Below, in pieces: positions 3,876-62,677 of a stretch of DNA of 64,000 bases. Within the stretch, counting starts at the first letter, position 1. Each line of letters opens with the position of its first letter. Under the pieces are notes generated by a model. The model was not told where the DNA came from, ran no database searches, and saw nothing but the letters and a program-made list of their open reading frames with translations. The position numbers and the translations under genes are program-made. The stretch is from a virus: IMG/VR virus record IMGVR_UViG_3300045988_181536, positions 64,001 to 128,000 of that record, one strand, 5' to 3'.

Positions 3876-4451
3876 ATGATAAATACTGACAGTATCACAT
3901 GGTACGTGGGCTGCGTGCTTGCTGGCGTTATGGCCGCGCTTGTAGGCTGCTCACTTATAAAAGACGGTGAAACCGTAAACTGGGACAAGGTTGATACAAT
4001 CTCGTCTCTTGTACAAACAACCGCGCAGGTTTCTACCTACGCCGTATGCGTTAAAAATCCGGATCTCTCTCCCGTGTTTAAGGCGATCGGCGAAGGGCTG
4101 GTGCTAATATCAGCATCCCCCGATTCCGAGCAAATGAAACCGGAACAGATTCAGGATTATATCAAAGACCTGCTGTCTGAAAAAGAATGGGGCAGCCTTG
4201 CCGGTCAGGTAAACGGTGTTATGGATACGCTTCTGGGTATCTATGGCAATTTCATAGAAGCTAACCAGGATAAGTTTACCGACGAAGCAAAAGTTTTTGC
4301 CCGTGTGCTAAACTCGATGGGCAAGGGTCTAATATCAGGCAGTGTAGTAGACGTGGCAAGCAGCGCCAAAGCTACAGCGGATCTGGAAAAACAGAAGTCT
4401 GAGCTGATAAATAAGCTAAAGGATATGGATCTCTCCGTATCCGAGGACTAA
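3876..4451 (+). CDS. putative lipoprotein
   Basis: Signal peptide with lipobox LVGCS; terminator hairpin at 4470-4500. Confidence 0.55.
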   Translation: MINTDSITWYVGCVLAGVMAALVGCSLIKDGETVNWDKVDTISSLVQTTAQVSTYAVCVKNPDLSPVFKAIGEGLVLISASPDSEQMKPEQIQDYIKDLLSEKEWGSLAGQVNGVMDTLLGIYGNFIEANQDKFTDEAKVFARVLNSMGKGLISGSVVDVASSAKATADLEKQKSELINKLKDMDLSVSED

Positions 4452-4469: not shown

Positions 4470-4500
4470 AGACGGCGTTGCAAAATACGCCGTCTTTTTT
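4470..4500 (+). terminator. rho-independent terminator
   Basis: agacggcg / cgccgtct stem followed by tttttt. Confidence 0.6.
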
Positions 4501-4770
4501 AAACTTTAAAAAGAAAGACGAAGCATGAAAAAACAAATCAACACAAAAGGTAAACGATTAAAGAAACGTGTAGTCAAAAAATTAACTGTAGATTTTTCCA
4601 ATAGGTATAATAATATTATGGATGTGGATTTTTTAATTTGCGCAAGCGCCAAATTGCCACAGGATATTTTAGAATCTAAACTCGATGGCACTATTAGTCC
4701 GATAGGCTTTGGGTGTTATAGAAAACAAAGAATTGATTATTATTAATTTAAACTAAAAACAAGGAACTAT

Positions 4771-35127: not shown

Positions 35128-37722
35128 ATGATAATAAAATCTTTACATTTAAAAAACTTCGGACAACATTCCGATTTATTTTTGGATATTAAAGGTCCTG
35201 TAATAGGCATAGTGGGGCGTAATGGATCTGGTAAATCGACTATTGTTTCTGCTTTGCAATATGCATTTACCGGAGAAACTACCAATAATATTCAAACGTA
35301 TATTAAAAAAGGCGAAACTTCCGCCGAAGTAGAAGTTATATTTGAGAAAAACGGTAAAACAGGCGTTATTAGACGTGGCATTAATACCAGAACTACTACC
35401 AGAAGTCTGACCTATGGTGATCTTATTCAAAAGCCTATTACTAAAGCTAAAGAATTTGACGCCATGATGGATCAAATTTTGGGAGTAGATAAACAAAATA
35501 TCTTAAGCGCTATATTTATTGCGCAAGGAGAAATTGCCAATATTCTTAGTCCGAGACTTTCGGAACGACTGGGCTTGTTTGCCAAATTGTTAAATTTAAA
35601 TTTCTTGTCCAAAAGATCTTACGTAGTTGACCAGACTTTAAATAAACTGAGATCTTCCGTTACAGATGTTGGCAGTTTAAAAAATAATTTGGAAGTTAAA
35701 ATTGAAAATTTAAAATCCAAAAACGAAGCCTGGGAATCTGCAGTTCAGGAAGCAAATGCGAAATATGTTAGCGCAACCTTTGTCAAAGATATATGGGAAT
35801 CCGCATCAAATTATATTCATGCTCAAAATGAGCATACACGATGGGAAACTAAATATCAAGAAGCATTAGCAACTCTTGTTGAACAAAAAAATAAGCTAAC
35901 CTCTGTAGCTGCAATTGCAGGGGTAGATGAATCTACGCTTATTCCTAGTATTACGACACAAATCGAAAGCTTAGAAAGTCAATTTAACGAAATAAGCGCA
36001 TTTTTAAAAAATCAACAGCTGATTATTGACGCTTGGAATAATTTAGTTTCAGCCAGAGAAGAAAATAAAATATTTAACCAGCTAAAGACCACGGTGTTTG
36101 CTGACGTACCACCTGACGTTGTGGAAACGACTGTGAGTGAATTTGACGAGTATCAAAACAACACAACCAAATTTGAAGATTGTTGCCTAAAATCCGAAAA
36201 GTGGAAAAACAAACTGTCTGAACTTGAGCAAGATATAAACAAAGCAACTTCCAAGATACAACAGGCAGAGGCCGCTATTCCTCGATTGGATCAACAAAGA
36301 AATAACTTGTGTTCAGTTGTGGCACAGCTAGAAACGCTGGCGAAAACCAAGCAGAAGCTAAAAGACAAGGTTAACAAAGATACTGCCAGCTGTCCTGTAT
36401 GCGGTCTAAAACTGATGCTTGGACAAGAGGTTTGTGATGGAGATATTGAAAGCATAAAACAAAATATTCAAACGCTTCAAACATCCCAGATTCAGCCCTT
36501 GGAAATACAGTTAAAAGAGGCAACTTCTCTAAAAGTAAACAATGGAGCTATCTTAAGAGTTTCAGAGCAAGAATTTAAGCGTATAAAAGCGGACTATGAT
36601 GAGTGCCAAACGCTTATGGTAGAACTGAAGTCTAAAATAGATGCTTATAAAAACGACTGGCCGAAAATTACACAAACTATTTACACAGTAAAAGAAAAGT
36701 TGCCTGAATATAAAGTGTTGTGGGAAAAAAATCAACGCAACACTTTGCAGGATATGATTGATCAAGTAACCAAAACCTTACAATCATTTAATCTTGATGA
36801 AAACAACATAGATGTCGTCAAATTAAAAGAAATTGTCAGCGCAAAAGAACAAGAACTGTCTAAGCTAAGGTCTGAAATATCTAATAAAAAAGATTTGTTA
36901 AGTAGGGCCACTACGATTACAGGGTCTATTTCTGCGCAGGAACAAGAAATATCTAAAACTCAAGAGACTATATCGCAGCTTAATCAAAATCTAAAAAATC
37001 ATAAGCTAAAACAAATACGCGATACACTTGAGCAAGATATAAAAAATGCCTATATTCTGGAAACGTTTAACCACTTCGTAATGATTCCTGAGGTGCAAAC
37101 AATTGCATCTGCAGCTGTGGATGTATATAATCAGCTAAATGCTGAAAAACAAGTCATTGATAATTTGCAGCAGCAGATTGACAATGATAAAAACTTGATC
37201 AATAAACTAGAAGCTGAGAATGCCAAGGTTTATGGTGAAGTTGAAGAATTGGCACGCATAAAGCAACTCTTGCAACCTCAAGACGGCGTAATTAAAAACT
37301 ATATCAATTATTTGTTTAAGTCGATTTCCGGATATATCAGCGAGTATTTGGCGTATATGAATGCCAACTTTATCATTCAAATTGAAGATAGAGCGACTGA
37401 AGAAGACTTGTCATTTAAGTTCCAAAGAATCGATAAGCCTAACGACAAATATTGGTACCCAATGTATCAATTGTCAGGTGGTCAAAAGATTAAGTTGTCC
37501 ATAGCGTTTCAATTAGCTATTCAGAAAATTATTTGCCCTGATTTAGGATTCTTGGTTTTAGATGAACCTACTACTCATTTAGATGAAGAATCCATAAAAG
37601 CGCTTAGCGAACTCTTGGAAAATGTCGGAAATATGTTAACCGGACAAAACGGTCAAGTATGGATCATTGATCATAACCATATCATAGACAAAGCATTTAC
37701 GACTGCAATTAACCTAGATTAG
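35128..37722 (+). CDS. Rad50/SbcC-family ATPase (T4 gp46-like)
   Basis: Walker A GRNGSGKST, long coiled coils with CPVCG zinc hook, signature LSGGQK, Walker B VLDEPTTHLD. Start taken at ATG 35128 (MIIKSLHLKNFG) rather than the upstream overlapping ATG. Confidence 0.8.
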   Translation: MIIKSLHLKNFGQHSDLFLDIKGPVIGIVGRNGSGKSTIVSALQYAFTGETTNNIQTYIKKGETSAEVEVIFEKNGKTGVIRRGINTRTTTRSLTYGDLIQKPITKAKEFDAMMDQILGVDKQNILSAIFIAQGEIANILSPRLSERLGLFAKLLNLNFLSKRSYVVDQTLNKLRSSVTDVGSLKNNLEVKIENLKSKNEAWESAVQEANAKYVSATFVKDIWESASNYIHAQNEHTRWETKYQEALATLVEQKNKLTSVAAIAGVDESTLIPSITTQIESLESQFNEISAFLKNQQLIIDAWNNLVSAREENKIFNQLKTTVFADVPPDVVETTVSEFDEYQNNTTKFEDCCLKSEKWKNKLSELEQDINKATSKIQQAEAAIPRLDQQRNNLCSVVAQLETLAKTKQKLKDKVNKDTASCPVCGLKLMLGQEVCDGDIESIKQNIQTLQTSQIQPLEIQLKEATSLKVNNGAILRVSEQEFKRIKADYDECQTLMVELKSKIDAYKNDWPKITQTIYTVKEKLPEYKVLWEKNQRNTLQDMIDQVTKTLQSFNLDENNIDVVKLKEIVSAKEQELSKLRSEISNKKDLLSRATTITGSISAQEQEISKTQETISQLNQNLKNHKLKQIRDTLEQDIKNAYILETFNHFVMIPEVQTIASAAVDVYNQLNAEKQVIDNLQQQIDNDKNLINKLEAENAKVYGEVEELARIKQLLQPQDGVIKNYINYLFKSISGYISEYLAYMNANFIIQIEDRATEEDLSFKFQRIDKPNDKYWYPMYQLSGGQKIKLSIAFQLAIQKIICPDLGFLVLDEPTTHLDEESIKALSELLENVGNMLTGQNGQVWIIDHNHIIDKAFTTAINLD

Positions 37723-48640: not shown

Positions 48641-50199
48641 ACTCCCCAAAACCACAGCCAACTGAAACAAATGATGCAATTGCCGTTACAGAAAATCCGG
48701 CAATTAAAAGTTTGGTGCGTAGTAATACCAGAATGTTTGAGCAGTATTTAATGGCTGCAATGATTTTAAGTTATGATTTTTGGAGAGTTTACTGTAAGGA
48801 CAGAATTAACGCTAGAATAAGCTCCCACAGATCATACGAAGATTTTAGTAAAAGCGTATATAACAATATTTATGACGGAATTTGCACGTTTTATAACACT
48901 TTATCCGACAAAAACGACCCAAATAGTTCTTCAATTACCCAAGTCGATGTAAGCTTTGTTAATAGTCTTTTAAAAGACCAGATGTATCTGGGACAAATAA
49001 GTATTGAAGACACGAAATTTGCCGAAGAAAGTTTAAATGAAATTGTCCAGTTAATTAACAATTCTGCCGGAAACAATGATGTTATTTTTAATTTTGCCAA
49101 ATCCGGTTTTGCATTTTGGCTGGAATTAAGACGAGTATCCCAGATAACTGAAAAGTCGTTTAATACAAAAATAACGGCTGATGAATTAATTAATAAACTT
49201 AAATCAGCTACAGATGGATTAGATGTAGATGATTCTACGTTTATGTCGTTTAATGACGCCGTGGACTTTGAAGACGTAGATAATGGCGGTTATCGTATGC
49301 CCGTGGCTACATTGCCTATTTTTACAAGAGTATTAGCCGGAGGATTAAAGAAAGGCGAAACTGGCATTGTTGCGTCACTGCCTTCGGGAGGAAAAACAGT
49401 TTTTGCATGTCAGCTTGCCGTTGGGTTGGCCTTAAATGCTTTTAAGGTATTATTTATTTCAACTGAGCAACATGCTGTTAATCTCGTGCCGAGATGTGTT
49501 AGTCTTAGCACAAATATACCTTTTAGTTTAATAAATGATGGCATTAAACATGCTGTTAAAAATAGCAAATTAAATGACCAACAAATAACCGAAATAAAGG
49601 AGTTTACACAGTTAGTGCAACCTTATCTTTATTTTGAAAATTGGGGATTAAAGGGTAATAAGATAACAAGCAGTTTAGAACATGCCATTGAAAAATTTAT
49701 AGAAGTTAATGGCAGTTTGGATGTTGTTATTATTGACTGGATAGGCGGTGGCATTGAAAAACCTCCGGAAGATCGCGCCAAAAAGCACGAGTATTATGAC
49801 TATACCATGAAATACATTTGCAAGGTTATGAAACAAAAACATCTTGCAGGAGTGGTTATGGCACAGGTTAATCCTAAACAAGCGGAAAATGTCGCAATGA
49901 TTACCATTAACGAACTGGCCGATTGTAAAACACTAGACCAAGATGCTTCTTGGGCATTGGGTATCTCGCGTTTAGAGAATCCTAAAACTCGTGTATCAAA
50001 TCAAATCCAAGCTTCGTATAAAACGCAACAAACGTTTAACTTTTGGAAAAACCGATTGTCTCCGCCGTATCATTATCCCGTGCTTCGTGATTTTGCTTAT
50101 CAAAGATTTGCGGAAAAAGAACAAGCAAGTCCTATGACAAATGTGGCGACCAAGGTTGAACTTGGCAGTATGGATACATTAAACATTAAGCCAATTTAA
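48631..50199 (+). CDS. DnaB-like / RecA-fold replicative helicase
   Basis: Walker A ASLPSGGKTVFACQLA, Walker B VVIIDWIGG in the C-terminal half. Confidence 0.6.
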   Translation: MDLNSPKPQPTETNDAIAVTENPAIKSLVRSNTRMFEQYLMAAMILSYDFWRVYCKDRINARISSHRSYEDFSKSVYNNIYDGICTFYNTLSDKNDPNSSSITQVDVSFVNSLLKDQMYLGQISIEDTKFAEESLNEIVQLINNSAGNNDVIFNFAKSGFAFWLELRRVSQITEKSFNTKITADELINKLKSATDGLDVDDSTFMSFNDAVDFEDVDNGGYRMPVATLPIFTRVLAGGLKKGETGIVASLPSGGKTVFACQLAVGLALNAFKVLFISTEQHAVNLVPRCVSLSTNIPFSLINDGIKHAVKNSKLNDQQITEIKEFTQLVQPYLYFENWGLKGNKITSSLEHAIEKFIEVNGSLDVVIIDWIGGGIEKPPEDRAKKHEYYDYTMKYICKVMKQKHLAGVVMAQVNPKQAENVAMITINELADCKTLDQDASWALGISRLENPKTRVSNQIQASYKTQQTFNFWKNRLSPPYHYPVLRDFAYQRFAEKEQASPMTNVATKVELGSMDTLNIKPI

Positions 50200-50268: not shown

Positions 50269-52584
50269 TCAGAATACAAAGGCTTTCCTTATTTCATCCA
50301 TCAAGTTATTATGGTTTTCCCTAATGGTATTTGCGCATACCTGAAGATAAGCGGGATACCACTTAATGTTGGATGTGCCCTTTGATACAACATTTTTCAT
50401 CCAAGAAGTAAAGTATCCTATAAAAGATACGTGGTCAATTGCATTCTTGAAATCCTTAAAGCAATCGGCATATAAGCTGCCTTTTCCGGTGCCGAAGGTT
50501 TTATGTACAGCCAAAGCTACAGCTTCAAAGATTTGTTGAATATAGGGCGTTTTGTCACAATGACCTTCAGCCATTTCAGTAAACAATATTTGCAGAATAT
50601 TTGACAAATGGTCATAAATCGCAGCTTTATCTTTGCAACGGAAACCTAAGAAACGGGTATTTATAGGTCCTTGATAAAGCGGATGACCTTGATAATCCGG
50701 CAGATCATTCTCTACAGGCATATTGTTAATATACTCCACAACCTTTGGAGGCAGCTGATCTAAATTTCGCAGAAGACGCAGTGACTGCATGCTGTGAATT
50801 AAGCGCTTGGGGAACAACGCCCTGCTTTCATGACCGAATAAGTCGCAAATCCTAAGTTTCTCTTCCATAGGAATGCTGTTATATTTTTCATGTCTGCAAA
50901 GATAAGAGCACATGCTCCTATGCCACCAGTTAGGCATAACATCCGCCTTTACATTCGGATTTTTATTTAACTGATCCGCGTGTAAAATCTTTTGATAATC
51001 ATTTATAAATTCATCCAACAAAGACTTAGGTTCAGGAATAGATCCAGGGAACAAAGCGTCCTCTGCCATAATAACTTCAAGCGTAGGACGGAAACGCTGT
51101 ACTTTGCCTATGCTGCGAACATTTTTCCGAAGTTCTTTAAGTTCTTCAATGGCCTCATTTAAATCTATTTCATATTCGCTTTTATTTATTCCAGTCCAAG
51201 CATTTCCTGGCTGAATAGGAAATACCTTTTCAGGTTCTTGATTTAACCTTGCGGCCTTTTCTGCAATTGCCTTCTGCCTTTGTTCGAAAATGGTTATGCT
51301 GTAATCTATTGCTTCCTGAATGTCTTTAATATGGTTGCTGCGACGTTCCAGAGATTTAAAAAACCTAAACGGAGCCAAATAAACCGCATGCAAAGATTCG
51401 CTTAAAAATCTATAACTCATCACTGAAGAGAATTGTTTTTCAGGACGAATATATTTTCCAAGATAACGCTTGCTTATGGACTTAAGATCCTTTTGAAATC
51501 TTTCCCATTTGCGGCATTTATCCGCTTGAATTGTATCCTCTAAAGATTCTGTGCCCTGGGGCTTGGCTGGAGGAGACCATTTGAGGGCTTTTCTGTCCAC
51601 CTCCATATAGTCTATTATGGTTTTATTGGAATCATTTCCTGTATGTGCGCTGCAAGCAACTCTAAGTTCATTCAACATCTTCCAATAGCTTTTTTTGCAG
51701 AATCTGCCACCCATAGAATTGATAAGATTCTTAAGATAAAGAATATTGGGAAGATGATGCTGTATATCACCTTCTCGCTTACGTTCTAAATCAAGATAAA
51801 GCGAATGATAAAACTTGGTTCCGTGAAGCTTATTGGATATGAACTTGAAATTCATCATTACCGCCATATTCGGATTTGACGGGCAATAATCCAAAGACAT
51901 GTCTAAGAGATGAAGCGCATGTGTATCTGCCAAGGAGCAATGATTGTAATTGGCATATTGTATGCGCTTTAATTGAGGATTATAACCTGCAAAAAACTTA
52001 ACAGACTTAAGCCCCCTTTCTGGAACATTGCAACGACGATCAGATAAAGTCCAGCCGTAACCGTTGGTGGCTTTAGGGTTTTTTTCAGCCCATTCCTTCT
52101 CAAGCTGTGCTCTTTTCTGAGCACGTTCCTTTGCCTGTTGCTCCTTTTTTAAGGCTGCTTCTTTTTCCAGCTTTTCCTTTTTTAAAGCCTCTTCCTTGGC
52201 CTTTCTTCTCTCTGCAAGCATCTGTTGATAGATTGCTCTGCCTTTTGCAATAGCTTGTCTTCTACGCTCTCTGTCTTCTTCGGAGATATTTAAAGGCTTA
52301 GTGACTTTGTAACCCTTGGGGCGTCGAAAACGATATTTGTCCAACTTGGCTTTAGCTAATTCTAAAACTTTTTCTGAAACCGTATATTTCCTCTTGCCAG
52401 TTTTCGTGGCTCTATCTGCAGCCACTAAATTCATGCAACATTGTACTAAAGTTTTTTGATTTGCTTTAAGCTTATCTTGATCCAAACGTCCAGTTCCACC
52501 CCCGCGAGCTCTGTGCACCTTCTCGTTCAGGATGCTCTTAGACATATCGCAGTATTCTTCTGTATTACCAATAGTTGTTGCCAT
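50269..52584 (-). CDS. large hypothetical protein (771 aa) with central Lys/Glu-rich coiled-coil segment
   Basis: Only long minus-strand gene in this part; KEEALKKEKLEKEAALKKEQQAKERAQKRAQLEKEWAEK. Confidence 0.6.
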   Translation of the reverse strand: MATTIGNTEEYCDMSKSILNEKVHRARGGGTGRLDQDKLKANQKTLVQCCMNLVAADRATKTGKRKYTVSEKVLELAKAKLDKYRFRRPKGYKVTKPLNISEEDRERRRQAIAKGRAIYQQMLAERRKAKEEALKKEKLEKEAALKKEQQAKERAQKRAQLEKEWAEKNPKATNGYGWTLSDRRCNVPERGLKSVKFFAGYNPQLKRIQYANYNHCSLADTHALHLLDMSLDYCPSNPNMAVMMNFKFISNKLHGTKFYHSLYLDLERKREGDIQHHLPNILYLKNLINSMGGRFCKKSYWKMLNELRVACSAHTGNDSNKTIIDYMEVDRKALKWSPPAKPQGTESLEDTIQADKCRKWERFQKDLKSISKRYLGKYIRPEKQFSSVMSYRFLSESLHAVYLAPFRFFKSLERRSNHIKDIQEAIDYSITIFEQRQKAIAEKAARLNQEPEKVFPIQPGNAWTGINKSEYEIDLNEAIEELKELRKNVRSIGKVQRFRPTLEVIMAEDALFPGSIPEPKSLLDEFINDYQKILHADQLNKNPNVKADVMPNWWHRSMCSYLCRHEKYNSIPMEEKLRICDLFGHESRALFPKRLIHSMQSLRLLRNLDQLPPKVVEYINNMPVENDLPDYQGHPLYQGPINTRFLGFRCKDKAAIYDHLSNILQILFTEMAEGHCDKTPYIQQIFEAVALAVHKTFGTGKGSLYADCFKDFKNAIDHVSFIGYFTSWMKNVVSKGTSNIKWYPAYLQVCANTIRENHNNLMDEIRKAFVF

Positions 52585-53811
52585 AATCGTTGTTTTAAAT
52601 TTTTCGTTATCTTTTCAAATTTTTATTATCCAATCAAGAAAAATTTTCTTAAAACCTGTAAAATTTTTAATAAGTATATAAAAATTAATGAGTTAAAGTT
52701 AAAATTTTTCTGATTCATGGTTGTTTATGTTGAATTTTAGGATTAGTGTGCCTTATTGGAAGAACCTATTACTATTTCTGAATAGCTAATCGGCCAACTT
52801 TTTGGTTAACATGGCGAGAGCGTAGCCCTCGCCTACACTCTGCATGTTAAATGTTAAAGATGCTTTAATGTTACAAATTAAAAGTCAAACATTAAAGATA
52901 AAAAAGTTGGCCTTTACGAACCTCTCATGTTCATGCCATCGGTCAACGCCCGATGTCACTTTTTCCGTTACTAAGATCTTGCGCCCCTACGGGGCGCTGG
53001 CGGAACCCCTGTAACTCCGCAATTTTTACGAAAATTGGCGCGAAAAACTGTTTAAATTCTCCAAAATTACATAGGAAAAAATGTGTCATTGCTAAAAATT
53101 GCAGTGCATTTGCCCGCTGTAAATAGACTAAAAAATAGCCAAATGATCAAAACGGAAATCTGGAACAATAGCTATATGCAGGAAAAAATGGGCTTAGAAT
53201 CTTTTTTAAATTTAAAGGTATATAAATATATAGCCTAAAAGCTAAAAATCATTTTTAAGGGCGTTTATTCGCGTTTTTTAATTTTATCGCTGGGTCAGAA
53301 CTAAATCCCTAAAAGCTGTATTAAGGGAGATTGCGTTATATCAAAAGTCGCCATGATAGCTATTATAAAAACGCTAAGTCTATTATACTGTGAAAATAAG
53401 CCCTAATTTCCCTTCCCCTGCACCCCTACCTTTGAATGAATATATTTTTATCTTCGAATTAACATTCTCGATAAAAAGCTTTTTATATTCTATCTGCATA
53501 AATGCATCTAGCATATAAAAAGAAAAATTATTAACATAATTTTTTCTACCTATTACTATTTCTGAATAGCAAAATAGTATTACCTTCGGAACTGCGTTCC
53601 TGCGGTAATACTATTTATTTTCTTTTTTAAAGGTGTTAAAATTTAAAGAGAAGAATCTTAAAAGAATTAGAGAAAAAATAACCAAAATTTAAAATGACAA
53701 TAAAACACCATACAATAATCCTAAATTAAAAAGCGATTATTGCATATCCATTAAGTAAAATTTTTTAAATAAAAAAAAAACAAACCATGTGTAAGTGTCA
53801 ATAGAAATTTC

Positions 53812-55182
53812 TTGATTAGTAAATCAATCCCATGCTTCAATCTATATCCCACAATGAGCACAGCTAAAACCTACATACTTGATGACAGATTATTAAAAAT
53901 AGATCTGTCCGCTTTGGAAAAAACATGCACAGCATTGAATTTTAAGTTAAGTCAACAAATACAAAGATTAGTTACGCGATTGCTTACAGTACATTTTACA
54001 GGCAAGTTGCATGTCATAGATCATAACCATTTGGAATTATCATTGCCTGATCCAGAATTATTGCAGGATGATGGTCCTAAAGAGTTAATGTCCAAGCATC
54101 TTTATGTAAACTTATCAAAATTTGCAGCAGAGGGTCATAATTGCGCTGCACGCTGTGTTAAAACCAATCGGTTTTATAATATAAAGGATTTGTTGGAAAT
54201 GCGTCCCATAGGATTAAGACATAAAGACAAGTCTTATAAATGGTATATAACTTGGGATCCGGATAAATTTTTAAAGAATTATAAAAATAAAGATTTATTG
54301 ACCTCTTCTTTAGTATTTAATTCCGAAGATGCTTTAGAGAATAAATGGATTTCTCCCGGCACATGCATTCCACTAAATAAATTGCCTGTATCCCATCCTG
54401 CAGTCTCTTATTTAAATGACAGGGGTTATACAGATATGGATGCTCTTGTCCGCCAGTTTAACGCTTCGTTTTGCACTGAGGAAAACCCGCAACTTAAACA
54501 TCTAAAATTCGGTAAGGATACTGAAGGCTATATAATTGACCCTTTTAAATTCTTTACCCCTCAAGGGTGTATTATTTTTACCGCTTTTCAATTAGGCCAG
54601 CCTAAATTATGGCAAGCAAGAATTTTAGATAAAAAATTAGGCAATGATAAATTGCATTATATGCATTTTGTCAATGACCCATTTAAAAGAATAAGCGGGT
54701 ATTATAAAGTAGCCGAAAAAGACGCTACAGGTAAATACATACCTTTACAGGGTGTGTCTGATTCCATTATAAAAAGAAAATATTATTTATCTCCAGGTTC
54801 TAAGGCCGGTAATGTTTTGATGGGTTATGATGCCGCGAGAGAATTTAATTTATCCCGTCCGTCAGGGAAGAAAGTTATAGGGCTTTGTGAAGGCGTTTTA
54901 GATGCTGCCAGAATGGGGCCGCCGTTTTGCGCTTATTTGGGAGGCGCTTTGTCCGTAGGACAGCTAAAATTAATTAGCAATGGCATGTTTGATAAAATAA
55001 TTCTTGCCGTAGACCATGATAAAGTCGGAAGCACTACGGCAGCTAAGTTGAGGCGTAGCATTTCTATGCTGGGAGGAATTGATATAGATGAATTAGACTA
55101 TCCTTTGAAGTTTAAAGATTTAGGAGAAATAACCGACAATAACCTGATTTTAGACTTAAAAAAACAATACGATTTATCTTGA
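53812..55182 (+). CDS. DNA primase (TOPRIM domain, DnaG-like)
   Basis: TOPRIM motifs VIGLCEGVLDAAR and ILAVDHDKVG; alternative start at ATG 53854. Confidence 0.65.
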   Translation: MISKSIPCFNLYPTMSTAKTYILDDRLLKIDLSALEKTCTALNFKLSQQIQRLVTRLLTVHFTGKLHVIDHNHLELSLPDPELLQDDGPKELMSKHLYVNLSKFAAEGHNCAARCVKTNRFYNIKDLLEMRPIGLRHKDKSYKWYITWDPDKFLKNYKNKDLLTSSLVFNSEDALENKWISPGTCIPLNKLPVSHPAVSYLNDRGYTDMDALVRQFNASFCTEENPQLKHLKFGKDTEGYIIDPFKFFTPQGCIIFTAFQLGQPKLWQARILDKKLGNDKLHYMHFVNDPFKRISGYYKVAEKDATGKYIPLQGVSDSIIKRKYYLSPGSKAGNVLMGYDAAREFNLSRPSGKKVIGLCEGVLDAARMGPPFCAYLGGALSVGQLKLISNGMFDKIILAVDHDKVGSTTAAKLRRSISMLGGIDIDELDYPLKFKDLGEITDNNLILDLKKQYDLS

Positions 55183-55217: not shown

Positions 55218-58200
55218 ATGGAAGAACAAGTAAAAACAAAAACCACGGATAATCCGGATCCGTTTACGAATGAGTTTTCCCGACAGATTTGGGAAGTAAC
55301 CTATAAAACGCAAAATGAAAAGAGTATTACAGATACGTGGAAACGTGTGGCAAATGCTGTAGCCAATGTAGAAAAGGATGAAGAATCCAAAAGATTTTAT
55401 GCTGAGGCTTTTTATGAGATTTTAAAAGATTTTAAGTTTATACCCGGAGGTCGTATATTGGCCAATGCAGGGGGTAGTTGTAAGAATGTCTCTCTCGTCA
55501 ACTGTTATCTCTCACCTGCTCCCAAATACGACATGGATTCCGTTGAAGGAATTATGGAGGTATTAAAGAACCAGGTTTTAACTTTAAAATCTGAAGGAGG
55601 CTGGGGTTTAAATTGTAGTTTTATTCGTCCCAGAGGTTCTTATATAGAAGGCATAGGTGCCAGAACCCCCGGTGCTGTAAAGTATTTGGAGCTGTTTGAT
55701 AAAAGTTCCGAAATTATTACGGAAGGTCCAGGAGAGTATTACATAGAGAATAAAGAAAAAACGCCTAAGAATGAAAAGAAGAAAATTCGCAAGGGTGCAA
55801 TGATGCTTTGTTTAAGCTGCTGGCATCCTGATATATACGAATTTATTACTGCCAAACAAAAGCCGTTTCATCTAACTAAAATGAATATGTCCGTAAATGT
55901 TACCAATGCTTTTATGGATATTTTAAATAGAGTTAACGAGCTTGTTAAAAACAATGCTTCGCAGGAAGAAATCGATGCTGTTGATTTTTGGCAATTGAGA
56001 TTTCCTGATACGGCTTTTGAAAAGTATAAATCCGAATGGGATGGAGACTTGGATAAATGGGAGAAAAAAGGTTATCCTGTAAAAGTTTATCGTACAGTAA
56101 GGGCTACTGATCTATGGGAAGCCTTAATGCAGTCTACCAGCAATCGTTCGGAGCCTGGAGTTTTATTTCTCGATAGGGCAAATGAGACACATTGCGCAAA
56201 TTATATCCCTGAGTTGCAATTAGTTGGGACAAATCCTTGTCTTACTGGAGATACCAAAGTTGCTGTTGCTGACGGGCGTACAAATGTGACTATTAAAGAG
56301 TTGGCCGAAGCTGGCAGAGATGTTCCGGTGTTAGCTTGTGATAATGCTGGCAATATTGTTACAAAGTTAATGCGTAATCCTCGTATTACAGGCTATAATA
56401 AAGATATTTATCGAGTGACTTTAGATGATGGTAATCATATTGATTGCACGTCTAATCATAAGTTTAGATTGTCTGATGGAACATATAAAGAGGTAAAAGA
56501 TTTATCAACAGGTGTAGCTTTGCACACAAATACGTTAAGTGTAGAAGAGTATAAACGTTATTTAGTGCAGGAAGTTTTAAATACGGAAATTACCCCTAAT
56601 CTTCAGCTTGATTCCGTACAACAACTGTGTGAAGAAGCAAAGTCTCAGGGTTATGAGGTAAAAATAGATAATAACATAGTTTTGGTTAAGAGGGTTTGTG
56701 AGGAATGTGGAAAAGAACATTTTGTTCCATTTACTCATCGCGAAATTGCGTTTTGTTCTCTGGAATGTTTAAATACCCATTTGAATAAAGAAAAAATCGC
56801 TGCCAAAACCACAAATACTGATTTAGATGTAATATCTGCTGAGGATTGGCCTGTAAGGTTTGTTTCGTCTATTGAATATATAGGCAAACAAGATGTCTAT
56901 ACCGGTACAGTTGATGATGTGCATAATTATTGCGTTGGGATGTTTGAAACTGTGAATGAACATGGACATCCAAAATTTTATATACTTAATAATCAGCAGT
57001 GCGGAGAGCAGGTTTTATACAGCGGAGGATGCTGCAACTTAGGATCCATCAATCTTACGGCATTTATAGAGTACGATGAAACTAAACATGCCGCCGTTTT
57101 TAACTTTCAGAAGTTCTCTGATATTGTTCCTTATTGCGTAAGATTCTTGGATAATGTCATAGACATTGCCAATCTGCCTTTGGAAGAATATAAATATATG
57201 GCTGAAAGTTATCGAAGAATCGGGCTTGGTATTACAGGCATAGGCTCTGCTTTAATGATGTTGGGTCTAAAATACGATTCTAAGGAAGCTAAAGACTTTT
57301 TAACTAAAGTTTTTGATGTTTATAATTTCTTAGGGATAAGGGCAAGTATCGCTTTAGCTAAATGTAAAGGTGCGTTTAAAGGATGCAATCCTGCAAAACA
57401 TGCTGATAATATAAAATATACGTTTAGACATTTACCGAAGTATATATTGGATGCTTTGCAAAAAGAATTGTTAGAAACTAACGGCATCCGCAATTCAGCC
57501 TTGTTCTCAGTCCAACCGACAGGCAATACAGGGTGTCTAGCCAATAATATTTCAGGCGGTGTGGAACCTGTGTTTCAGTTAGAATACTACAGAATTGTTG
57601 GAGTGCCGATTGTTCCTGAAAGCATAAAAGATAAATGTCCTAGGTTCTGGGAGGGGGATTTTACTCCGAACAATTATTTCAAAGAAGTTAAATACGCAGA
57701 TTTTACTTACTTGTCTTACGTAACTGAAGCTGGCCAAGAATATCAGATACATAAAGATAGAGGTCTGTGTGAAAAAGTAAAAATTCGAGATTATGCTTAC
57801 CAATGGATCTTGGATCATAATTTAGAATATCCACAGGAAGTTTTTACAACAGCTATGCAACTACCTGTTGAATCTCATTTGGAAATTCTGAAATTAGTAT
57901 CTGCACATTTGGATTCCGCTGTAAGTAAAACGATAAATGTTGGCAAGGATTACCCTTATGAACAGTTTAAGAATGTTTATTTAGATGCATATAATAGCGG
58001 AGTAATAAAAGGAGTTACGACTTATCGTGAGGGTTCTATGAGTGCAGTATTGCAAACTACGGATTCGAAAGATGACGTAAATCCTACATCTACATCGATT
58101 ATTCATCCTACTATTACTGCTGAGAAACGTCCTGATATATTGCCGTGTAGAGTATTTTTTAGAACGGTAAAAGGAATATCTTATTACTTTATTGTAAGTT

Positions 58201-58664
58201 TCTTGGAAAATAGTCCGTTTGAGATGTTTATTGACATAAATGAAGATAACATTTTTGACGAGGATGGAGAATGGGTTGAGCGCCGTCGCATTATACCCAA
58301 GACTGTAAAGGAAGGAACTTTAAAGAAGTTGGGTAAGGCTACGTTCGAGTTTGTATCTAAAGATGAGAAATTTATATTTAAAATTGTAAAAGCCAATGAG
58401 TCTTCAGATAAAGCCACATTAACAGCCCTTGCTCGTTTGGTGGCTTTGAATTTGCAGTCCGGTGTATCAGTGAAAGAGATAATACATCAGCTATCTAAAA
58501 CCGAAGGGGATTTTACTTCAATTGTGAAAGCAATTAACAAAGTATTGTCTCAGTGTGCTGGTAAAGTTGATCTTGGAGAAACATGCCCTGTTTGCGGAGG
58601 TAAAGTGTTACGTGAAGAGGGATGTAAAAAATGCTATGCATGTGGATGGTCTGCATGCGGCTAA
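55218..58664 (+). CDS. ribonucleotide reductase, class II-like (NrdJ-like), intein-containing
   Basis: RNR motifs NCYLSP, LKSEGGWGLNCSFIRPRGSYI, RKGAMMLCLSCWHPDIYEFI, active-site TNP|CGEQ interrupted by intein, CNLGSINL, C-terminal Cys-rich tail CPVCGG..CKKCYACGWSACG. Confidence 0.75.
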   Translation: MEEQVKTKTTDNPDPFTNEFSRQIWEVTYKTQNEKSITDTWKRVANAVANVEKDEESKRFYAEAFYEILKDFKFIPGGRILANAGGSCKNVSLVNCYLSPAPKYDMDSVEGIMEVLKNQVLTLKSEGGWGLNCSFIRPRGSYIEGIGARTPGAVKYLELFDKSSEIITEGPGEYYIENKEKTPKNEKKKIRKGAMMLCLSCWHPDIYEFITAKQKPFHLTKMNMSVNVTNAFMDILNRVNELVKNNASQEEIDAVDFWQLRFPDTAFEKYKSEWDGDLDKWEKKGYPVKVYRTVRATDLWEALMQSTSNRSEPGVLFLDRANETHCANYIPELQLVGTNPCLTGDTKVAVADGRTNVTIKELAEAGRDVPVLACDNAGNIVTKLMRNPRITGYNKDIYRVTLDDGNHIDCTSNHKFRLSDGTYKEVKDLSTGVALHTNTLSVEEYKRYLVQEVLNTEITPNLQLDSVQQLCEEAKSQGYEVKIDNNIVLVKRVCEECGKEHFVPFTHREIAFCSLECLNTHLNKEKIAAKTTNTDLDVISAEDWPVRFVSSIEYIGKQDVYTGTVDDVHNYCVGMFETVNEHGHPKFYILNNQQCGEQVLYSGGCCNLGSINLTAFIEYDETKHAAVFNFQKFSDIVPYCVRFLDNVIDIANLPLEEYKYMAESYRRIGLGITGIGSALMMLGLKYDSKEAKDFLTKVFDVYNFLGIRASIALAKCKGAFKGCNPAKHADNIKYTFRHLPKYILDALQKELLETNGIRNSALFSVQPTGNTGCLANNISGGVEPVFQLEYYRIVGVPIVPESIKDKCPRFWEGDFTPNNYFKEVKYADFTYLSYVTEAGQEYQIHKDRGLCEKVKIRDYAYQWILDHNLEYPQEVFTTAMQLPVESHLEILKLVSAHLDSAVSKTINVGKDYPYEQFKNVYLDAYNSGVIKGVTTYREGSMSAVLQTTDSKDDVNPTSTSIIHPTITAEKRPDILPCRVFFRTVKGISYYFIVSFLENSPFEMFIDINEDNIFDEDGEWVERRRIIPKTVKEGTLKKLGKATFEFVSKDEKFIFKIVKANESSDKATLTALARLVALNLQSGVSVKEIIHQLSKTEGDFTSIVKAINKVLSQCAGKVDLGETCPVCGGKVLREEGCKKCYACGWSACG
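56238..56999 (+). other. intein (254 aa) inserted before the catalytic Cys of RNR
   Basis: Block A CLTGDTKVAV, block B DCTSNHKF, internal Cys4 segment CEECG..CSLEC, block F VYTGTVDDVHNYCVG, ends ..ILNNQQ followed by CGEQ. Confidence 0.7.
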
Positions 58665-58717: not shown

Positions 58718-61700
58718 ATGAGAGAAAGCGAAATTAATTTACCCCCCGTGAATATGGATTTGCCATGTCCTAAATTGGCAGATTTTTGCGGAGATTTATC
58801 GTATAAACGTTGTAAGGATGACTTAACTCCCGAAAACGATAATGTAGTATTTTTAAATGGTGTAGGCAGGTTAAATGCGGATATAATGTTTTTAACTGCG
58901 GCGCCATTAAAAGAGGATGTGGATGCGAGATATTCTACACCTATGCATTTAAAATCGGGTGCCGGTGAAATGTTTCGCGCAATATGTTTGCAAAATGGCA
59001 TTGATATTGATGACTGTTATTTTACGTCATTAATAAAGTACGGAATAAAACAAAAGAATTTAAAAGGTTGTAAAAAGGATATAGATTATTGTTTGCCTTT
59101 GCTTCTGGAAGAATTTCAGTATTGTCACCCAAAAATTATAGTTTGCGTCGGTACGGAAGCGTGTGACTTTATTTTAAATTATAAAATAAGCGTATCAAAA
59201 TTGGAAGAGGCGTGGTTTTTTAGTCAAGAACACAACGCTCATGTGTTTGTAATTAGCAGTATTTATAATGCCTATTATAAGCCTGAATTGTACGATAAAT
59301 TAGATAAAGAGATAGGCATGTTGGCTGACTTTTATGATCATTTTCTACAAGGCAAGCCAATCGAGCAGATAAAGTGTGACTATCAATGTATTTCAACTTA
59401 TTCACAGTTATCCAATTTGTTAAATCAGCTTAAGTCTGAAGGTTATAAATTATTTGGAGTTGACTGCGAGTGGGGTAAACAATGTTTTGTAGACGGATAT
59501 CTTAGATCAATACAATTTGCATGGGCTCCAGGCAAGGCAGCTTATATAAACTTTAATAATGAACAAGCCGAATGGGTCTTTGATGCATCAAAAGAATCGG
59601 TATGTAAATTATTGCAAGATTTTTTTAATGACCCTGAAGTGCATTTTGTAGGGCATAACGGAGCGGCTGATGCTCAATGGATGTCAACACATTTGGGACT
59701 AAATGTGTATGACGGCAAGTTTATTTTTGACACCATGTTTGGTATTCAGACAGCTGATGAATATGCTGATCAAAAGTTGGAAAAATTAGCTGCCAAATAC
59801 ACAGATAAAGGCAGATATGATATTGATCTGATCTTATGGAAGAAAAATAATAAAGGCGTATCCTTTGATGAAGATGAAGGATATGGACAAGTTCCTTTGG
59901 AAATTCTTTACCCATATGGTTGTTCGGATGCCGATGTAACTTTAAGATTGTATCCGATTATTAAAGACATGTTAATTAAAGACGGCACTTATGATTATTT
60001 CATGAATATTAAGTTGCCGTTTGTTATTGATGGATTTACCTCCATGTCTATTGCGGGTGTGCCTTTTTGCACTGAGGATGCCAATAAAGCGCGAATAGCT
60101 TATCTGGCCGCAGGCGTAGTCATGCAAAAGTTGTTTATGCAAATGCTTAAAAAAGAGGCATATGATTTGTTTTATACGGAAGTGTCAAAAATTCCGCAGG
60201 AAACGCCTGTAGCGAATATTGCAGAAATTCAAAAGTTTTTTGATGATGAAAGATCTTTTGAAGATATTTTTAATCTGTTAAAAAAACTTTATGGGCGCAA
60301 AGCATTGCCTTTATTGCCGTTTGCTGAACATTATTACTATGTGGATGCCTTTAATCCCAATTCTGCAGAGCATAAAAAGAAATGGTTGTTTGACGTAAAG
60401 AAATACACGCCTATTAAAACAACTAAGCCGGAAGAGGGTAATGCAATACCCTGGGAAAGAGTATTAAAAATGTCCCCCGCTAAGCAGAAAAATTATAAGC
60501 CTGCTGTGGATAAAGATACTCTTAAAATATTTGCGGATAAAGGAGATGATTTATGTCTGCATTTATTGCAAATGAATGCAATTAATCAGATAACCAAGAA
60601 TTTTCTAAAAGGTGAAGAAGGCGGGCTGCAAAAGTTTTTAACTTCAGATGGAAGGCTGCATTCCAACTTCGTTATGACCGAAAGCTCACGGCCACGATCG
60701 TTTAAGCCTAACATCTTAAACATACCAAGATATGTTACAGATTACATAGACAAGGGTTTCACGAAAGTATTAAAGTATTTTAATATTACAGATAAATCTG
60801 ATTTGTCGGAGTTTAATGAAGATAATTTTAATGAAATCGTAAATTCTTTACGTGAAACTTACGGCATTACCGAAAATATAACGATAAAAGATATGGTGCC
60901 TGCACCGTTGCGCTGGTGCTTTAAAGCGCCTGAAGGGTATTGTTTTGTCGATGCAGACTATGCCACAGCTGAAGTATGGTCGATTGCATATTTGGCAAAT
61001 GATAAAAAGTTAATTTCCACTTTGAATGATCCGGATCCGCAATTTGCATTTAAAAAGATGCCTGATGGTTCGGAAAAACAAGTGCGTATAGCATATTGTG
61101 ATGACATTGTTGAATTTACTGAAGATGCAAAAGATCCTGCACTACTTGTAGATCCTAATGATCCGGATTTGGTGAGAAATAATGACGGGTCTCTAAAGCA
61201 TCCGAAACAAGATGTTCACTGGGTTGCAGTGGAAAATAAATTTATGCTTAACACACCCCGAGAAAAGTTAAACAAGAAGAAGACGAGAGATGCTGCGGGA
61301 AAGGTAGCTAATTTTTGTTCTGGCAAAGAAAATTACGTTTATACTTTAGAGGGTTATAAAAAAGCAAAGTTAATAAAACAAGGAGATATTTTAAAATCAA
61401 TATCCGGTTTTACAAAAACTTTATCTGTTACTGCTTTAAATGAGAGAGACTGCATTAAGATCAGATTAAGTTCCGGATTAGTGGCTACTTATCATAAATA
61501 TCATAAGCTTAGATGCTTTAATGGTACGGAAATGGTCTGGGTAAGAGTTAAAGATATCGATCCAAAAAGGCATAAAGTAGTTACCTTCAATCCGAGTTTT
61601 ACTGAAGTTATAGGCACTTTTAATGTTCCAAAAGATTCTTATACGGATTTTTATACAGAATTGAAATGTCGTGAAGGTGATAATACCTATCGCTTGCCTG

Positions 61701-62677
61701 AGTGGATATTCTCTTTAAGTCGTGCTGAGATTTGGAGTATATTGCAACGCTTTTTAGAATTAAACCCCCGAGTCACCGATGCGGTGTGTTATCATTTTCC
61801 GTTAAAATTTTGGAAAAATAATTTAGAATTTATTTCCGATATTGCTTTATTGTTGAATTTTATAGGTTTTCAAACCAAGCTTTCGTTGGAACAAGGCGAG
61901 GATGTTTTAGTGGCTTCGGCTGCTATCGAACCTAATGGGCCTTTGCAAAATATTTATTTTAGTGAAGTTGTTTCTTTGGAACATGTGAAAGAAGATATTG
62001 TGGCAATTGAATGTGAATCCCATGAATATATAGACACTTCAATGAATAGCCATAATTCGATTCCTTATGGTGCAAGTCCTTCTTTGCTGGAACGTAACAT
62101 TGAAATAGCTTCAGGTGAAAAACCTGAACCTGGTACGGGACAAAAACTTATTGACGCCTATATGAACACCAAACCGCAAGTTGCAGAATTTTTGGAATGG
62201 TGTAAGTCTCTGCCTGACGGACAAGGGTATTACCAATCGCCTTCGGGATTTAAAAGACATTTTAAAATACCGCCTTTGGATGCTCAAATGTCGGATGATC
62301 TTAGAGAAAGTATCATAAGTAAACTTCGTCGAGAAGCTTGCAATATAGGATTGCAATCTTTGGTTGCTGACTCTTTAGCAAGGGCCATACCTCCACTAAA
62401 TGCCAGTTTTAGAAAGATGAATATGAAGAGCAGAGTAGTAATTCCTTTGTATGACGCTATTTATATTTTATCTCCTTACAACGAAGTCGATTTGGCTGTA
62501 AGTATGTTGAAGTTTTTTATGTCTGAGAATAATTATTGGGACCTAAAAGGCGGTCGCTTGCGTTACAGTATTGATGTCGAAGTTACAAAACGGTGGGGTA
62601 CAGAACTTTCTGAAGAAGAACACAAAGAACTAACTGAAGGATTAAAAAACGCTTGCCAGACGTTCAAGCTTGCGTAG
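58718..62677 (+). CDS. family A DNA polymerase with N-terminal UDG-like domain and 3'-5' exonuclease, intein-containing
   Basis: Exo I FGVDCEW, Exo II FVGHNGAADAQWM, Exo III YPYGCSDAD; Pol motif A FVDADYATAEVWSIAYLA; motif B R..AGKVANF|intein|SIPYGAS; motif C VIPLYDAIYIL; N-terminal ~150 aa weakly resembles family-4 UDG. Confidence 0.75.
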   Translation: MRESEINLPPVNMDLPCPKLADFCGDLSYKRCKDDLTPENDNVVFLNGVGRLNADIMFLTAAPLKEDVDARYSTPMHLKSGAGEMFRAICLQNGIDIDDCYFTSLIKYGIKQKNLKGCKKDIDYCLPLLLEEFQYCHPKIIVCVGTEACDFILNYKISVSKLEEAWFFSQEHNAHVFVISSIYNAYYKPELYDKLDKEIGMLADFYDHFLQGKPIEQIKCDYQCISTYSQLSNLLNQLKSEGYKLFGVDCEWGKQCFVDGYLRSIQFAWAPGKAAYINFNNEQAEWVFDASKESVCKLLQDFFNDPEVHFVGHNGAADAQWMSTHLGLNVYDGKFIFDTMFGIQTADEYADQKLEKLAAKYTDKGRYDIDLILWKKNNKGVSFDEDEGYGQVPLEILYPYGCSDADVTLRLYPIIKDMLIKDGTYDYFMNIKLPFVIDGFTSMSIAGVPFCTEDANKARIAYLAAGVVMQKLFMQMLKKEAYDLFYTEVSKIPQETPVANIAEIQKFFDDERSFEDIFNLLKKLYGRKALPLLPFAEHYYYVDAFNPNSAEHKKKWLFDVKKYTPIKTTKPEEGNAIPWERVLKMSPAKQKNYKPAVDKDTLKIFADKGDDLCLHLLQMNAINQITKNFLKGEEGGLQKFLTSDGRLHSNFVMTESSRPRSFKPNILNIPRYVTDYIDKGFTKVLKYFNITDKSDLSEFNEDNFNEIVNSLRETYGITENITIKDMVPAPLRWCFKAPEGYCFVDADYATAEVWSIAYLANDKKLISTLNDPDPQFAFKKMPDGSEKQVRIAYCDDIVEFTEDAKDPALLVDPNDPDLVRNNDGSLKHPKQDVHWVAVENKFMLNTPREKLNKKKTRDAAGKVANFCSGKENYVYTLEGYKKAKLIKQGDILKSISGFTKTLSVTALNERDCIKIRLSSGLVATYHKYHKLRCFNGTEMVWVRVKDIDPKRHKVVTFNPSFTEVIGTFNVPKDSYTDFYTELKCREGDNTYRLPEWIFSLSRAEIWSILQRFLELNPRVTDAVCYHFPLKFWKNNLEFISDIALLLNFIGFQTKLSLEQGEDVLVASAAIEPNGPLQNIYFSEVVSLEHVKEDIVAIECESHEYIDTSMNSHNSIPYGASPSLLERNIEIASGEKPEPGTGQKLIDAYMNTKPQVAEFLEWCKSLPDGQGYYQSPSGFKRHFKIPPLDAQMSDDLRESIISKLRREACNIGLQSLVADSLARAIPPLNASFRKMNMKSRVVIPLYDAIYILSPYNEVDLAVSMLKFFMSENNYWDLKGGRLRYSIDVEVTKRWGTELSEEEHKELTEGLKNACQTFKLA
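61316..62056 (+). other. intein (247 aa) inserted in DNA polymerase motif B
   Basis: Starts C at NF|CSGKENYVY, ends ..SMNSHN followed by SIPYGAS; the extein junction restores ANF-SIPYG, matching the PolA motif B consensus; internal region may be a degenerate homing endonuclease. Confidence 0.65.

Follow-up and report, generated by a model that had tools for sequence, protein, structure and literature searches.

What is the function of more than a kilobase of gene-free DNA lying among the replication genes of a large phage? The question is raised by a stretch of 64,000 nucleotides of viral DNA (IMG/VR record IMGVR_UViG_3300045988_181536, positions 64,001 to 128,000 of that record; this whole stretch is called the window here, and positions are counted from its first letter), in which positions 52585-53853 (1.27 kb, the gap) form the largest stretch without an open reading frame (ORF) of at least 80 aa. 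Sequence comparison shows that the gap is a genuine non-coding module, conserved as part of the replication gene cluster, with a co-evolving pair of repeats (the boxes) and with hairpins whose evolution appears to preserve structure and to carry signals of plus-strand polarity. The box pair emerges from this comparison as the defining feature of the module across a whole phage family, and the folded elements are probably small RNAs. An earlier note, made from the letters of this DNA alone, had drawn the region as non-coding up to 53811. Its gene-free character stands, with no small ORF conserved, and its right edge is moved to 53853: the primase gene on that side most likely begins at ATG 53854 and not at TTG 53812, because the primases of relatives align from that methionine, and the gap is therefore taken as 52585-53853.

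A single pair of identical boxes

The gap contains a direct repeat, CCTATTACTATTTCTGAATAGC, at 52765-52786 and 53549-53570, with the copies 784 bp apart; it had been reported as a 22-nt repeat at ~52766 and ~53552 (~785 bp), and it grows to 26 nt when one mismatch is allowed. No further match with up to 3 mismatches was found in the 64 kb, and none in 100 shuffles. The longest exact repeat is at most 14 nt in shuffles of the gap and at most 13 nt in other 1.1-kb segments of the 64 kb. Each copy holds a small dyad, CTATT-N10-AATAG. Within the clade of the window, for which a variability profile was made from 11 distinct sequences, a 21-nt core is invariant in both copies, and the base before copy 1 is C, T or A. 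Exactly two copies are present in a complete genome of 173 kb and degenerate copies show no enrichment in the window, so that the box was rejected as a general phage promoter. The core has no exact match among 185,579 bacterial and archaeal species, each represented by one genome.

The only other exact direct repeats of at least 20 nt in the 64 kb are one of 34 nt (14984-15017/16265-16298), which spans the ribosome-binding region, the ATG and the first codons of two nearby genes, and one of 25 nt within coding sequence (20024-20048/22611-22635); both probably mark the starts of paralogous genes. The 3' half of box 1 with four flanking bases (52775-52790) is a perfect 16-nt complement to the 3' part of an SbcC/Rad50-like gene (37512-37527), both sides lying on plus-strand transcripts. 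As a target this pairing was set aside as being near chance, five long-range 16-mers having been seen in the window against two to three expected.

The same module in other lineages

Relatives were found by following primase homologues into metagenome contigs. Eight lineages, with primases 43-98% identical, have an ORF-free gap of about 0.95-1.27 kb beside the primase gene, either directly upstream of it or one orphan gene away. Each gap has one repeat pair of 21-67 nt, with copies 457-784 bp apart. Only in L031 is the pair inverted and not direct, and only there do the copies differ, at 1 of 38 positions; the other seven lineages have two identical copies in direct orientation.

Window clade: repeat of 21-22 nt, spacing 784 bp
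L008: repeat of 32 nt, spacing 584 bp
L009: repeat of 34 nt, spacing 579 bp
L021: repeat of 30 nt, spacing 776 bp
L022: repeat of 23 nt, spacing 662 bp
L044: repeat of 23 nt, spacing 723 bp
L023: repeats of 32 and 67 nt, as two interleaved pairs
L031: repeat of 38 nt, inverted, 37 of 38 positions identical

In shuffles of the same gaps the longest exact repeat is 13-15 nt, and across loci of 7-13 kb the box pairs are the sole exact repeats of at least 18 nt within 2 kb. Three more distant relatives, in which the helicase and primase genes abut, have neither the gap nor the repeat. A search of IMG/VR by the boxes of L021 and L022 found no close relatives.

The box sequence is lineage-specific, and a dyad is present in every box (TTCTTT(A)..(T)AAAGAA, GATCTTA-TTAC-TAAGATC, CTATT..AATAG), a small feature in which the boxes appear to keep traces of common descent. 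The boxes of L008 and L009 differ at four sites, and the changes are identical in both copies. Hairpins follow each box within 2-30 nt in every lineage. A T-run accompanies the hairpin after box 2, on the primase strand, in the window clade, L008, L009 and L022, and less cleanly in L021. Although the orphan genes next to the gap differ between lineages, the module keeps its place between the DnaB helicase and primase genes. The centre of the gap has (AT)n or AT palindromes in L031 and L044, with polypurine and alternating GC tracts in L031 as well. Short repeated hairpin motifs are found in L023, and the gap of the window has no other enriched 8-9-mers.

Some further observations concern these relatives. 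L023 has three similar hairpins of the form (T)ATAC-GAA/TTC-GTAT(A) at 4498-4662 and 3926-3945; it also shares the 10-mer ACTTCGTATA with a loxP arm, and its 32-nt repeat begins with ACTTCGT, which was judged post hoc and is maybe a coincidence. Two independent metagenome contigs, L032 and L045, break inside the gap, 382 and 186 nt upstream of the primase respectively, and the end of the L032 contig adjoins a perfect 28-bp hairpin (46-104). These breaks could reflect strain variation or assembly problems.

Conserved islands and folded elements

The features of the gap are listed below in the order of the sequence.

52585-52764: AT-rich left spacer, conserved in the clade over 52585-52735 and variable over 52735-52764, up to the base before box 1
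52765-52786, plus strand: box 1 (repeat copy 1), with the clade-invariant core 52766-52786, CTATTACTATTTCTGAATAGC
52792-52803 and 52901-52912: long-range inverted repeat GGCCAACTTTTT/AAAAAGTTGGCC, complementary at 12 of 12 positions
52792-52912, plus strand: three-way-junction domain closed by the 12-bp stem GGCCAACUUUUU/AAAAAGUUGGCC (z = -4.4), the first part of island A
52813-52833: GC-rich hairpin GGCGAG..CTCGCC
52937-52966, plus strand: terminator-like site 1, hairpin CATCGG-N7-CCGATG (52937-52955), then TCACTTTTT / TCACTTTTTCC
52981-52997, plus strand: GC-rich hairpin GCGCCCC-TAC-GGGGCGC
53000-53028, plus strand: terminator-like site 2, GCGGA-N11-TCCGC (53000-53020), then AATTTTT / AATTTTTA; the end of island A
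53035-53385: variable middle part with mosaic haplotypes
About 53186-53268: dyad block, recognisable in L021 and L031 (nhmmer E 1e-18 to 1e-20)
53401-53428, plus strand: C-rich motif CCCTAATTTCCCTTCCCCTGCACCCCTA, G-quadruplex-capable on the minus strand
53435-53548, plus strand: nearly invariant AT-rich stretch with three predicted hairpins, the core of island B
53549-53570, plus strand: box 2 (repeat copy 2), identical to box 1
53572-53628, plus strand: strong terminator-like hairpin beginning 2 nt after box 2, arms 53572-53592/53596-53616, then ATTTTCTTTTTT
53629-53853, plus strand: putative leader/promoter region of the primase operon

Several of these elements had already been recognised in the earlier note. 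The GC-rich hairpins are found as described there (52813-52833 and 52981-52997), the long-range inverted repeat begins at 52792/52901 instead of 52788/52900, and the terminator-like hairpin with its T-run occupies 53572-53628 and not 53573-53630.

Conservation within the clade is concentrated in two islands. Island A (52760-53035) begins at box 1 and comprises the three-way junction followed by three GC-rich hairpins, two of which have T-runs. Island B (53385-53612) contains box 2, and its right edge coincides with the final base pair of the terminator hairpin; positions 53435-53610 have at most 2 variable columns, compared to 10-17 per 25 nt just outside. Immediately after the hairpin (53616) comes the most variable sequence of the gap (53612-53690). 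The ~350 nt between the two islands are variable, with mosaic haplotypes, and some genomes have other sequence in part of them; in L034 and L002 unrelated sequence takes the place of a 45-nt stretch (53329-53373) whose flanks, GTATTAAGGG ... AAAACGCTAAGTC, are fully conserved. A single long non-coding RNA (ncRNA) ending at ~53600, as had been suggested, fits this pattern less well than at least two separate conserved units with variable sequence between them.

The hairpin after box 2 consists of a 13-bp outer and a 5-bp inner stem (-23.7 kcal/mol, z = -5.4). Between L008 and L009 its counterpart shows four compensatory double changes in a 17-bp stem with the pairing kept, and in L023 and L044 there are two compensatory changes around an invariant 10-nt loop, GAGTTTACGA. 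Four pairs with compensatory change were also found in the central dyad block (window, L021 and L031), and at terminator-like site 1 the stem is invariant in the clade and the loop varies. The compensatory changes indicate that the hairpins are selected for pairing. G·U pairs are found on the plus strand, where the opposite strand would carry A·C mismatches; in the three-way-junction domain two clade members have U in place of C, by which a G-C pair becomes G·U, and this holds for the plus strand only. The form of an intrinsic terminator (hairpin, then T-run) occurs at three sites of the window's gap, all on the plus strand, which is the primase strand. An alternative pairing between box 2 and the terminator arm is present in the window and is not kept in L008 and L009. 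GNA-triloop DNA mini-hairpins were seen on the minus strand, an observation judged post hoc. The complement of the C-rich motif at 53401-53428, GGGGTGCAGGGGAAGGGAAATTAGGG, has four G-runs and is G-quadruplex-capable within a region of 30% GC; C4-5-N3-4-C4-5 motifs lie at comparable places in L021 (3518), L022 (4207) and L031 (1463).

Coding content, composition and promoters

A small conserved protein in the gap, a finding that the earlier note had named as one that would refute its proposal, was sought in stop-to-stop frames of at least 18 aa compared over seven lineages, and only low-complexity noise was obtained; a minus-strand ORF of 43 aa (53383-53514) has no counterpart elsewhere. The Rfam scan that had been proposed gave no family match in the gap at gathering thresholds (window, gap, L008 and L009), and with E up to 10 the best gap matches stay far under the gathering scores. 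A tRNA/tmRNA scan found none inside the gap, and no second or mobile copy of the module was found in the window.

The GC content of the gap is 30% compared to ~36% for the window. Cumulative GC skew, also proposed as a check, shows over the 64 kb a local dip matching the minus-strand gene on the left and no global extreme at the gap. Among the 15 least stable duplexes of 100 bp in the 64 kb, three fall in the gap, where they flank the part bounded by the boxes, and similar ones occur elsewhere; the one at 52608-52707 ranks third in the window. DnaA boxes (up to 2 mismatches) are as frequent as in shuffles in all lineages.

Neither sigma-70 hexamers nor the Bacteroidetes -7 box (TAnnTTTG) is enriched in the intergenic DNA of the phage, and no promoter can be called because both consensus sequences are uninformative for it. 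A TAccTTTG at 53427, before island B, was rejected as a promoter since it is not kept in the clade. A match to TTAACA-17-TACTAT is present for box 2 only, and this consensus is likewise without enrichment in the intergenic DNA.

The phage and the genes around the gap

The module belongs to a phage of ~165-175 kb that has been seen only in human-gut metagenomes, with near-identical contigs in IMG/VR and ENA. BLAST against 50,697 phage records gave no match for the gap, the helicase or the 771-aa protein, and a single weak partial match for the primase. The genes around the gap, among them the helicase, primase, ribonucleotide reductase (RNR) and DNA polymerase genes claimed earlier as its flanks, are the following.

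48631-50199: DnaB-type helicase gene, upstream of the 771-aa gene
50269-52584, minus strand: 771-aa orphan gene, all-helical; left neighbour of the gap, transcribed away from the module
53854-55182, plus strand: Toprim primase of 442 aa; right neighbour, first gene of the primase-RNR-PolA block
55218-58664: RNR large subunit with an intein, downstream of the primase
58718-62677: family A polymerase (PolA) of 1319 aa with an N-terminal domain of the uracil-DNA-glycosylase (UDG) superfamily

The 771-aa protein matches no Pfam family. Its homologues number five among 5.8 billion proteins, with three matches among 1.84 billion representatives; the AlphaFold2 model is unusable (pLDDT, the predicted local distance difference test score, of 40), and function searches gave nothing. 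The first ~160 codons of the gene (window 52100-52584) are hypervariable in genomes that are otherwise ~96% identical, and DNA identity to L011 drops to 51-73% over 52101-52600. In L008 the counterpart of the 771-aa protein is 30% identical compared to 76% for the primase. The N-terminal part thus looks like a swapped or fast-evolving domain adjoining the module. Directly beside this hypervariable gene start lies the almost invariant, non-coding sequence 52585-52735, which presumably holds the promoter and 5' untranslated region of the gene.

On the right side, one clade genome (IMGVR_UViG_3300045988_180451; L007 4355-5968 = L002) carries an IS200/IS605 element of ~1.6 kb inserted between window positions 53814 and 53821, just upstream of the primase start. 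The element encodes a Y1 TnpA of 133 aa and a TnpB of 365 aa, and the box-bounded module is intact. The window itself has a TnpB/Cas12f-like gene of 403 aa (OrfB_IS605, TNB and HTH domains) on the minus strand at 6812-8023, in a low-GC patch. The closest bacterial relatives of this TnpB are 34-56% identical and taxonomically scattered, and because they are so distant and scattered it offers no clue to the host; a host in the Bacteroidota is suggested solely by the absence of Shine-Dalgarno sequences.

Elsewhere, the RNR genes of relatives have different inteins with LAGLIDADG domains. A tRNA-Gln gene (1732-1804) is followed 46 nt on by a full-length group I intron match (1851-2105, Rfam 68.7 bits) that lies outside the tRNA, and L008 has a similar match at 12962-13187, downstream of the polymerase region. 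A protein of 730 aa (25054-27246) with AAA_33 kinase, metallophosphatase and T4 Rnl1-type RNA ligase domains is a fused Pnkp-ligase tRNA-repair enzyme.

What the module may do

The preferred reading, put forward tentatively and as a possibility rather than a probability, is that of rightward-transcribed structured RNA units that share one recognition box and end at terminators ahead of the primase-RNR-polymerase genes, with a box-reading factor controlling read-through; transcription, the factor and the regulatory output are what we infer from the features described. Of the origin of replication and/or ncRNA that had been proposed for the region, the ncRNA half is supported by comparison between genomes, through the absence of a conserved small ORF, the compensatory hairpins, the T-run sites on the plus strand and the conservation that ends at the 53616 hairpin, whereas the origin half is plausible by position only. 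A packaging region, the other function suggested at that time, found no support.

According to the preferred reading, the gap would be transcribed toward the primase into at least two structured RNA units. Unit A would run from box 1 through the three-way junction and the GC-rich hairpins to the sites of hairpin and U-run near 52966 and 53028, and unit B would consist of the almost invariant stretch with box 2 and end at the strong terminator at ~53628, ~225 nt before the primase start codon. A single trans-acting factor would recognise the box, an element of 21-34 nt (23-67 nt in the most distant lineages) with a small stem-loop; this factor is most likely a protein specific to the phage, which would bind either the RNA hairpin or the dyad of the box in DNA. 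The copies would stay alike and change together because this one factor reads both. The output may be a factor-dependent control of both units and of the extent to which transcription reads through into the replication genes, by a mechanism of the nut/RAT or the promoter-operator type; this output appears the most likely since hairpins follow every box and, in at least four lineages, a terminator comes directly after box 2. Initiation of replication could make use of these transcripts as well.

A number of points weigh against such RNA units. Neither promoter consensus is enriched in the intergenic DNA and none can be called at the gap, the sequence just upstream of box 1 is variable, and no candidate box-binding protein was recognised. 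The fold of island B is only modestly better than that of shuffles (z = -2.2), and its near-total invariance, loops included, exceeds what an RNA structure needs; the RNA bodies cannot be aligned between lineages. The inverted boxes of L031 suit a symmetric DNA site better than an RNA element that works in one direction, and DNA hairpins would likewise keep compensatory changes and G·T pairs.

Those last points lead to the main rival, which seems somewhat unlikely on the present evidence and is compatible with transcription, hence not exclusive: the gap would be an origin of replication, whose boxes bind a phage initiator or the machinery that loads helicase and primase and bracket AT-rich, hairpin-rich DNA, and initiation may be activated or primed by transcripts that run rightward as far as the terminators. 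The place between the DnaB helicase and primase genes, kept in eight lineages despite differing orphan neighbours, is that expected of an origin, and so is the low GC content (30% vs ~36%), though AT-rich stretches are not unique in the window, even if 3 of its 15 least stable duplexes lie in the gap. The (AT)n or AT palindromes of L031 and L044, the polypurine and alternating GC tracts of L031, the central dyad conserved in three lineages, the invariance of island B at every base and the inverted boxes of L031 also favour this reading, the inverted boxes being suited to a DNA site. The sites, however, are only two and lie 457-784 bp apart, where an iteron array would have a cluster of three or more repeats; DnaA-box-like sequences are at chance level, and the cumulative skew of the window has no extreme beyond the effect of the minus-strand gene. 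The fast-evolving orphan gene next to the gap could encode a specificity factor, but no initiator is recognisable, the 771-aa protein being an orphan with no fold assignment, and no test made here separates an origin from any other cis-acting region.

It is improbable that the boxes are crossover sites, either for a site-specific recombinase of the lox/FRT/hix kind (half-sites in inverted orientation on either side of an asymmetric spacer) or for homologous exchange like that of the PeSL repeats of T4-like phages, which form mini-circles (PMC2839356, PMC4122927). The segment of 0.5-0.8 kb would be cut out to form a small circle, flipped (as in L031) or exchanged when two phages infect the same cell, and the copies would be identical because recombination itself maintains them. 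Perfectly identical repeats with sharp edges in seven lineages and the co-change of L008 and L009 suggest such homogenisation, and a dyad in every box, the change of orientation from direct in seven lineages to inverted in one, the strongly lineage-specific content between the boxes, the mosaic haplotypes of the clade and the Mre11/Rad50-type recombination functions encoded by the phage point the same way. Excision would give the deletion junction GGAAGAAC-box-AAAATAGTATTACC and the circle junction TTTTTTCTAC-box-TAATCGGCC; no deletion, circle or inversion junction was found in the 11 distinct clade sequences, which are colinear, or in eight metagenome stretches (assembled contigs), in which all 12 box occurrences keep their parental flanks. 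In addition, the 17 window proteins scanned have no recombinase domain, the dyad spacing of 4-10 nt is unlike that of fixed recombinase sites, PeSLs are many per genome and flank ORFs where the boxes are exactly two and flank non-coding sequence, and excision would lose strongly conserved sequence. There is also a small chance that the box pair is a previously undescribed phage replication or recombination element, with a factor that copies out or excises the 0.5-0.8-kb segment as a DNA or RNA circle, or initiates and delimits a local replication bubble; the copies would be identical in seven of eight lineages, with one difference in the eighth, because copying regenerates both boxes in each cycle. 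Very improbable is a decoy of host immunity, in which the boxes are solitary mimics of CRISPR repeats (Racr-type RNA anti-CRISPRs), expressed with hairpin and terminator, and are alike because both imitate the same host repeat. The size (21-34 nt) and internal hairpin of the box resemble CRISPR repeats, a terminator follows box 2, Racrs are solitary repeat units in phages (PMC10651486), and identical copies that are lineage-specific would be expected from mimicry of different host repeats. The 21-nt core, on the other hand, lacks an exact match in the 185,579 species' genomes (a search for exact matches only), neither box matches an Rfam CRISPR-DR model even at E up to 10, and the constant place in the replication cluster and the surrounding ~800 conserved nt would be left unexplained.

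Whatever its function, the module offers a testable handle (two 21-nt boxes and three predicted RNA 3' ends) on a phage group without a cultured or annotated relative, and includes a 175-nt stretch more strictly conserved than the genes around it. Should a phage-specific factor bind the boxes, they would be a new example of paired recognition sites that co-evolve with their reader; should the module be an origin, this phage group would have its first defined one, which would help to estimate replication rates from metagenome coverage. Other uncultivated phages can be searched for the module by a simple rule: one perfect pair of at least 20 nt, with 0.45-0.8 kb between the copies, in an ORF-free gap that adjoins the primase gene.

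Comparison with known systems

Paired sites for one phage-specific protein are known from the lambda nutL/nutR (boxB) and RAT-type systems, where two near-identical copies within a phage differ between related phages and both fit that protein. By analogy, the boxes resemble the lambda nut/RAT sites as a short hairpin element with two copies per genome, upstream of terminators, whose copies appear to co-evolve (L008 vs L009). Unlike nutL and nutR, which lie in divergent transcripts, the copies are on one strand and are inverted only in L031, and the analysis found no boxA, no N-like protein and no box that overlaps the terminator stem.

Non-coding AT-rich regions in or beside replication genes are also found at T4 oriF and oriG, the T7 primary origin (two tandem promoters), ColE1 RNA II and the ori of lactococcal phage c2. 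The module shares with such transcription-assisted origins the structured untranslated transcripts, which are predicted here, and a C-rich/G-rich tract of a type known to stabilise RNA-DNA hybrids; it differs by having no identified promoter and no skew signal, and those origins are without a perfect distant repeat pair. In P4 ori/crr and in R6K gamma with the alpha/beta origins, identical protein-binding repeats placed hundreds of bp to kb apart cooperate via looping. The identical repeats of the module are placed far apart in an analogous way, but the P4 and R6K sites are clusters of short iterons with a known initiator, whereas here each site is a single box of 21-67 nt. The two units can further be compared with sibling small RNAs (OmrA/OmrB, Qrr1-4), in which adjacent units share an identical segment of 20-30 nt and differ in the remainder. 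In the siblings this segment has the same place in each RNA and is the seed for common mRNA targets; here the box opens one conserved unit and lies close to the end in the other, and no convincing target was found.

Among phage elements with solitary repeats, the module differs from the Racrs in that its box core has no exact match in the genomes of 185,579 species and no match to a CRISPR-DR model, imperfect mimicry being outside the scope of that search. A closer likeness in form is found in the PeSL cassettes of T4-like phages, which consist of a promoter-like box with a stem-loop terminator and can excise the interposed DNA as a mini-circle (PMC2839356, PMC4122927). Both are cassettes of short, near-identical repeats in direct orientation, carried by a large lytic phage whose recombination genes are of the T4 type. 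PeSLs, however, are present in many copies in hyperplastic regions, flank small ORFs and have a recognisable sigma-70 promoter preceded by a stem-loop, whereas the boxes are two, have a fixed place in the replication cluster, flank non-coding DNA, lack a recognisable promoter consensus and have the strong stem-loop after the box; the stem-loop just upstream in PeSLs may be compared with the hairpins that lie on both sides of box 2. The module belongs to no described family and is best classed with the non-coding control or origin regions of phages, as a variant distinguished by its single, perfectly matched, co-evolving box pair.

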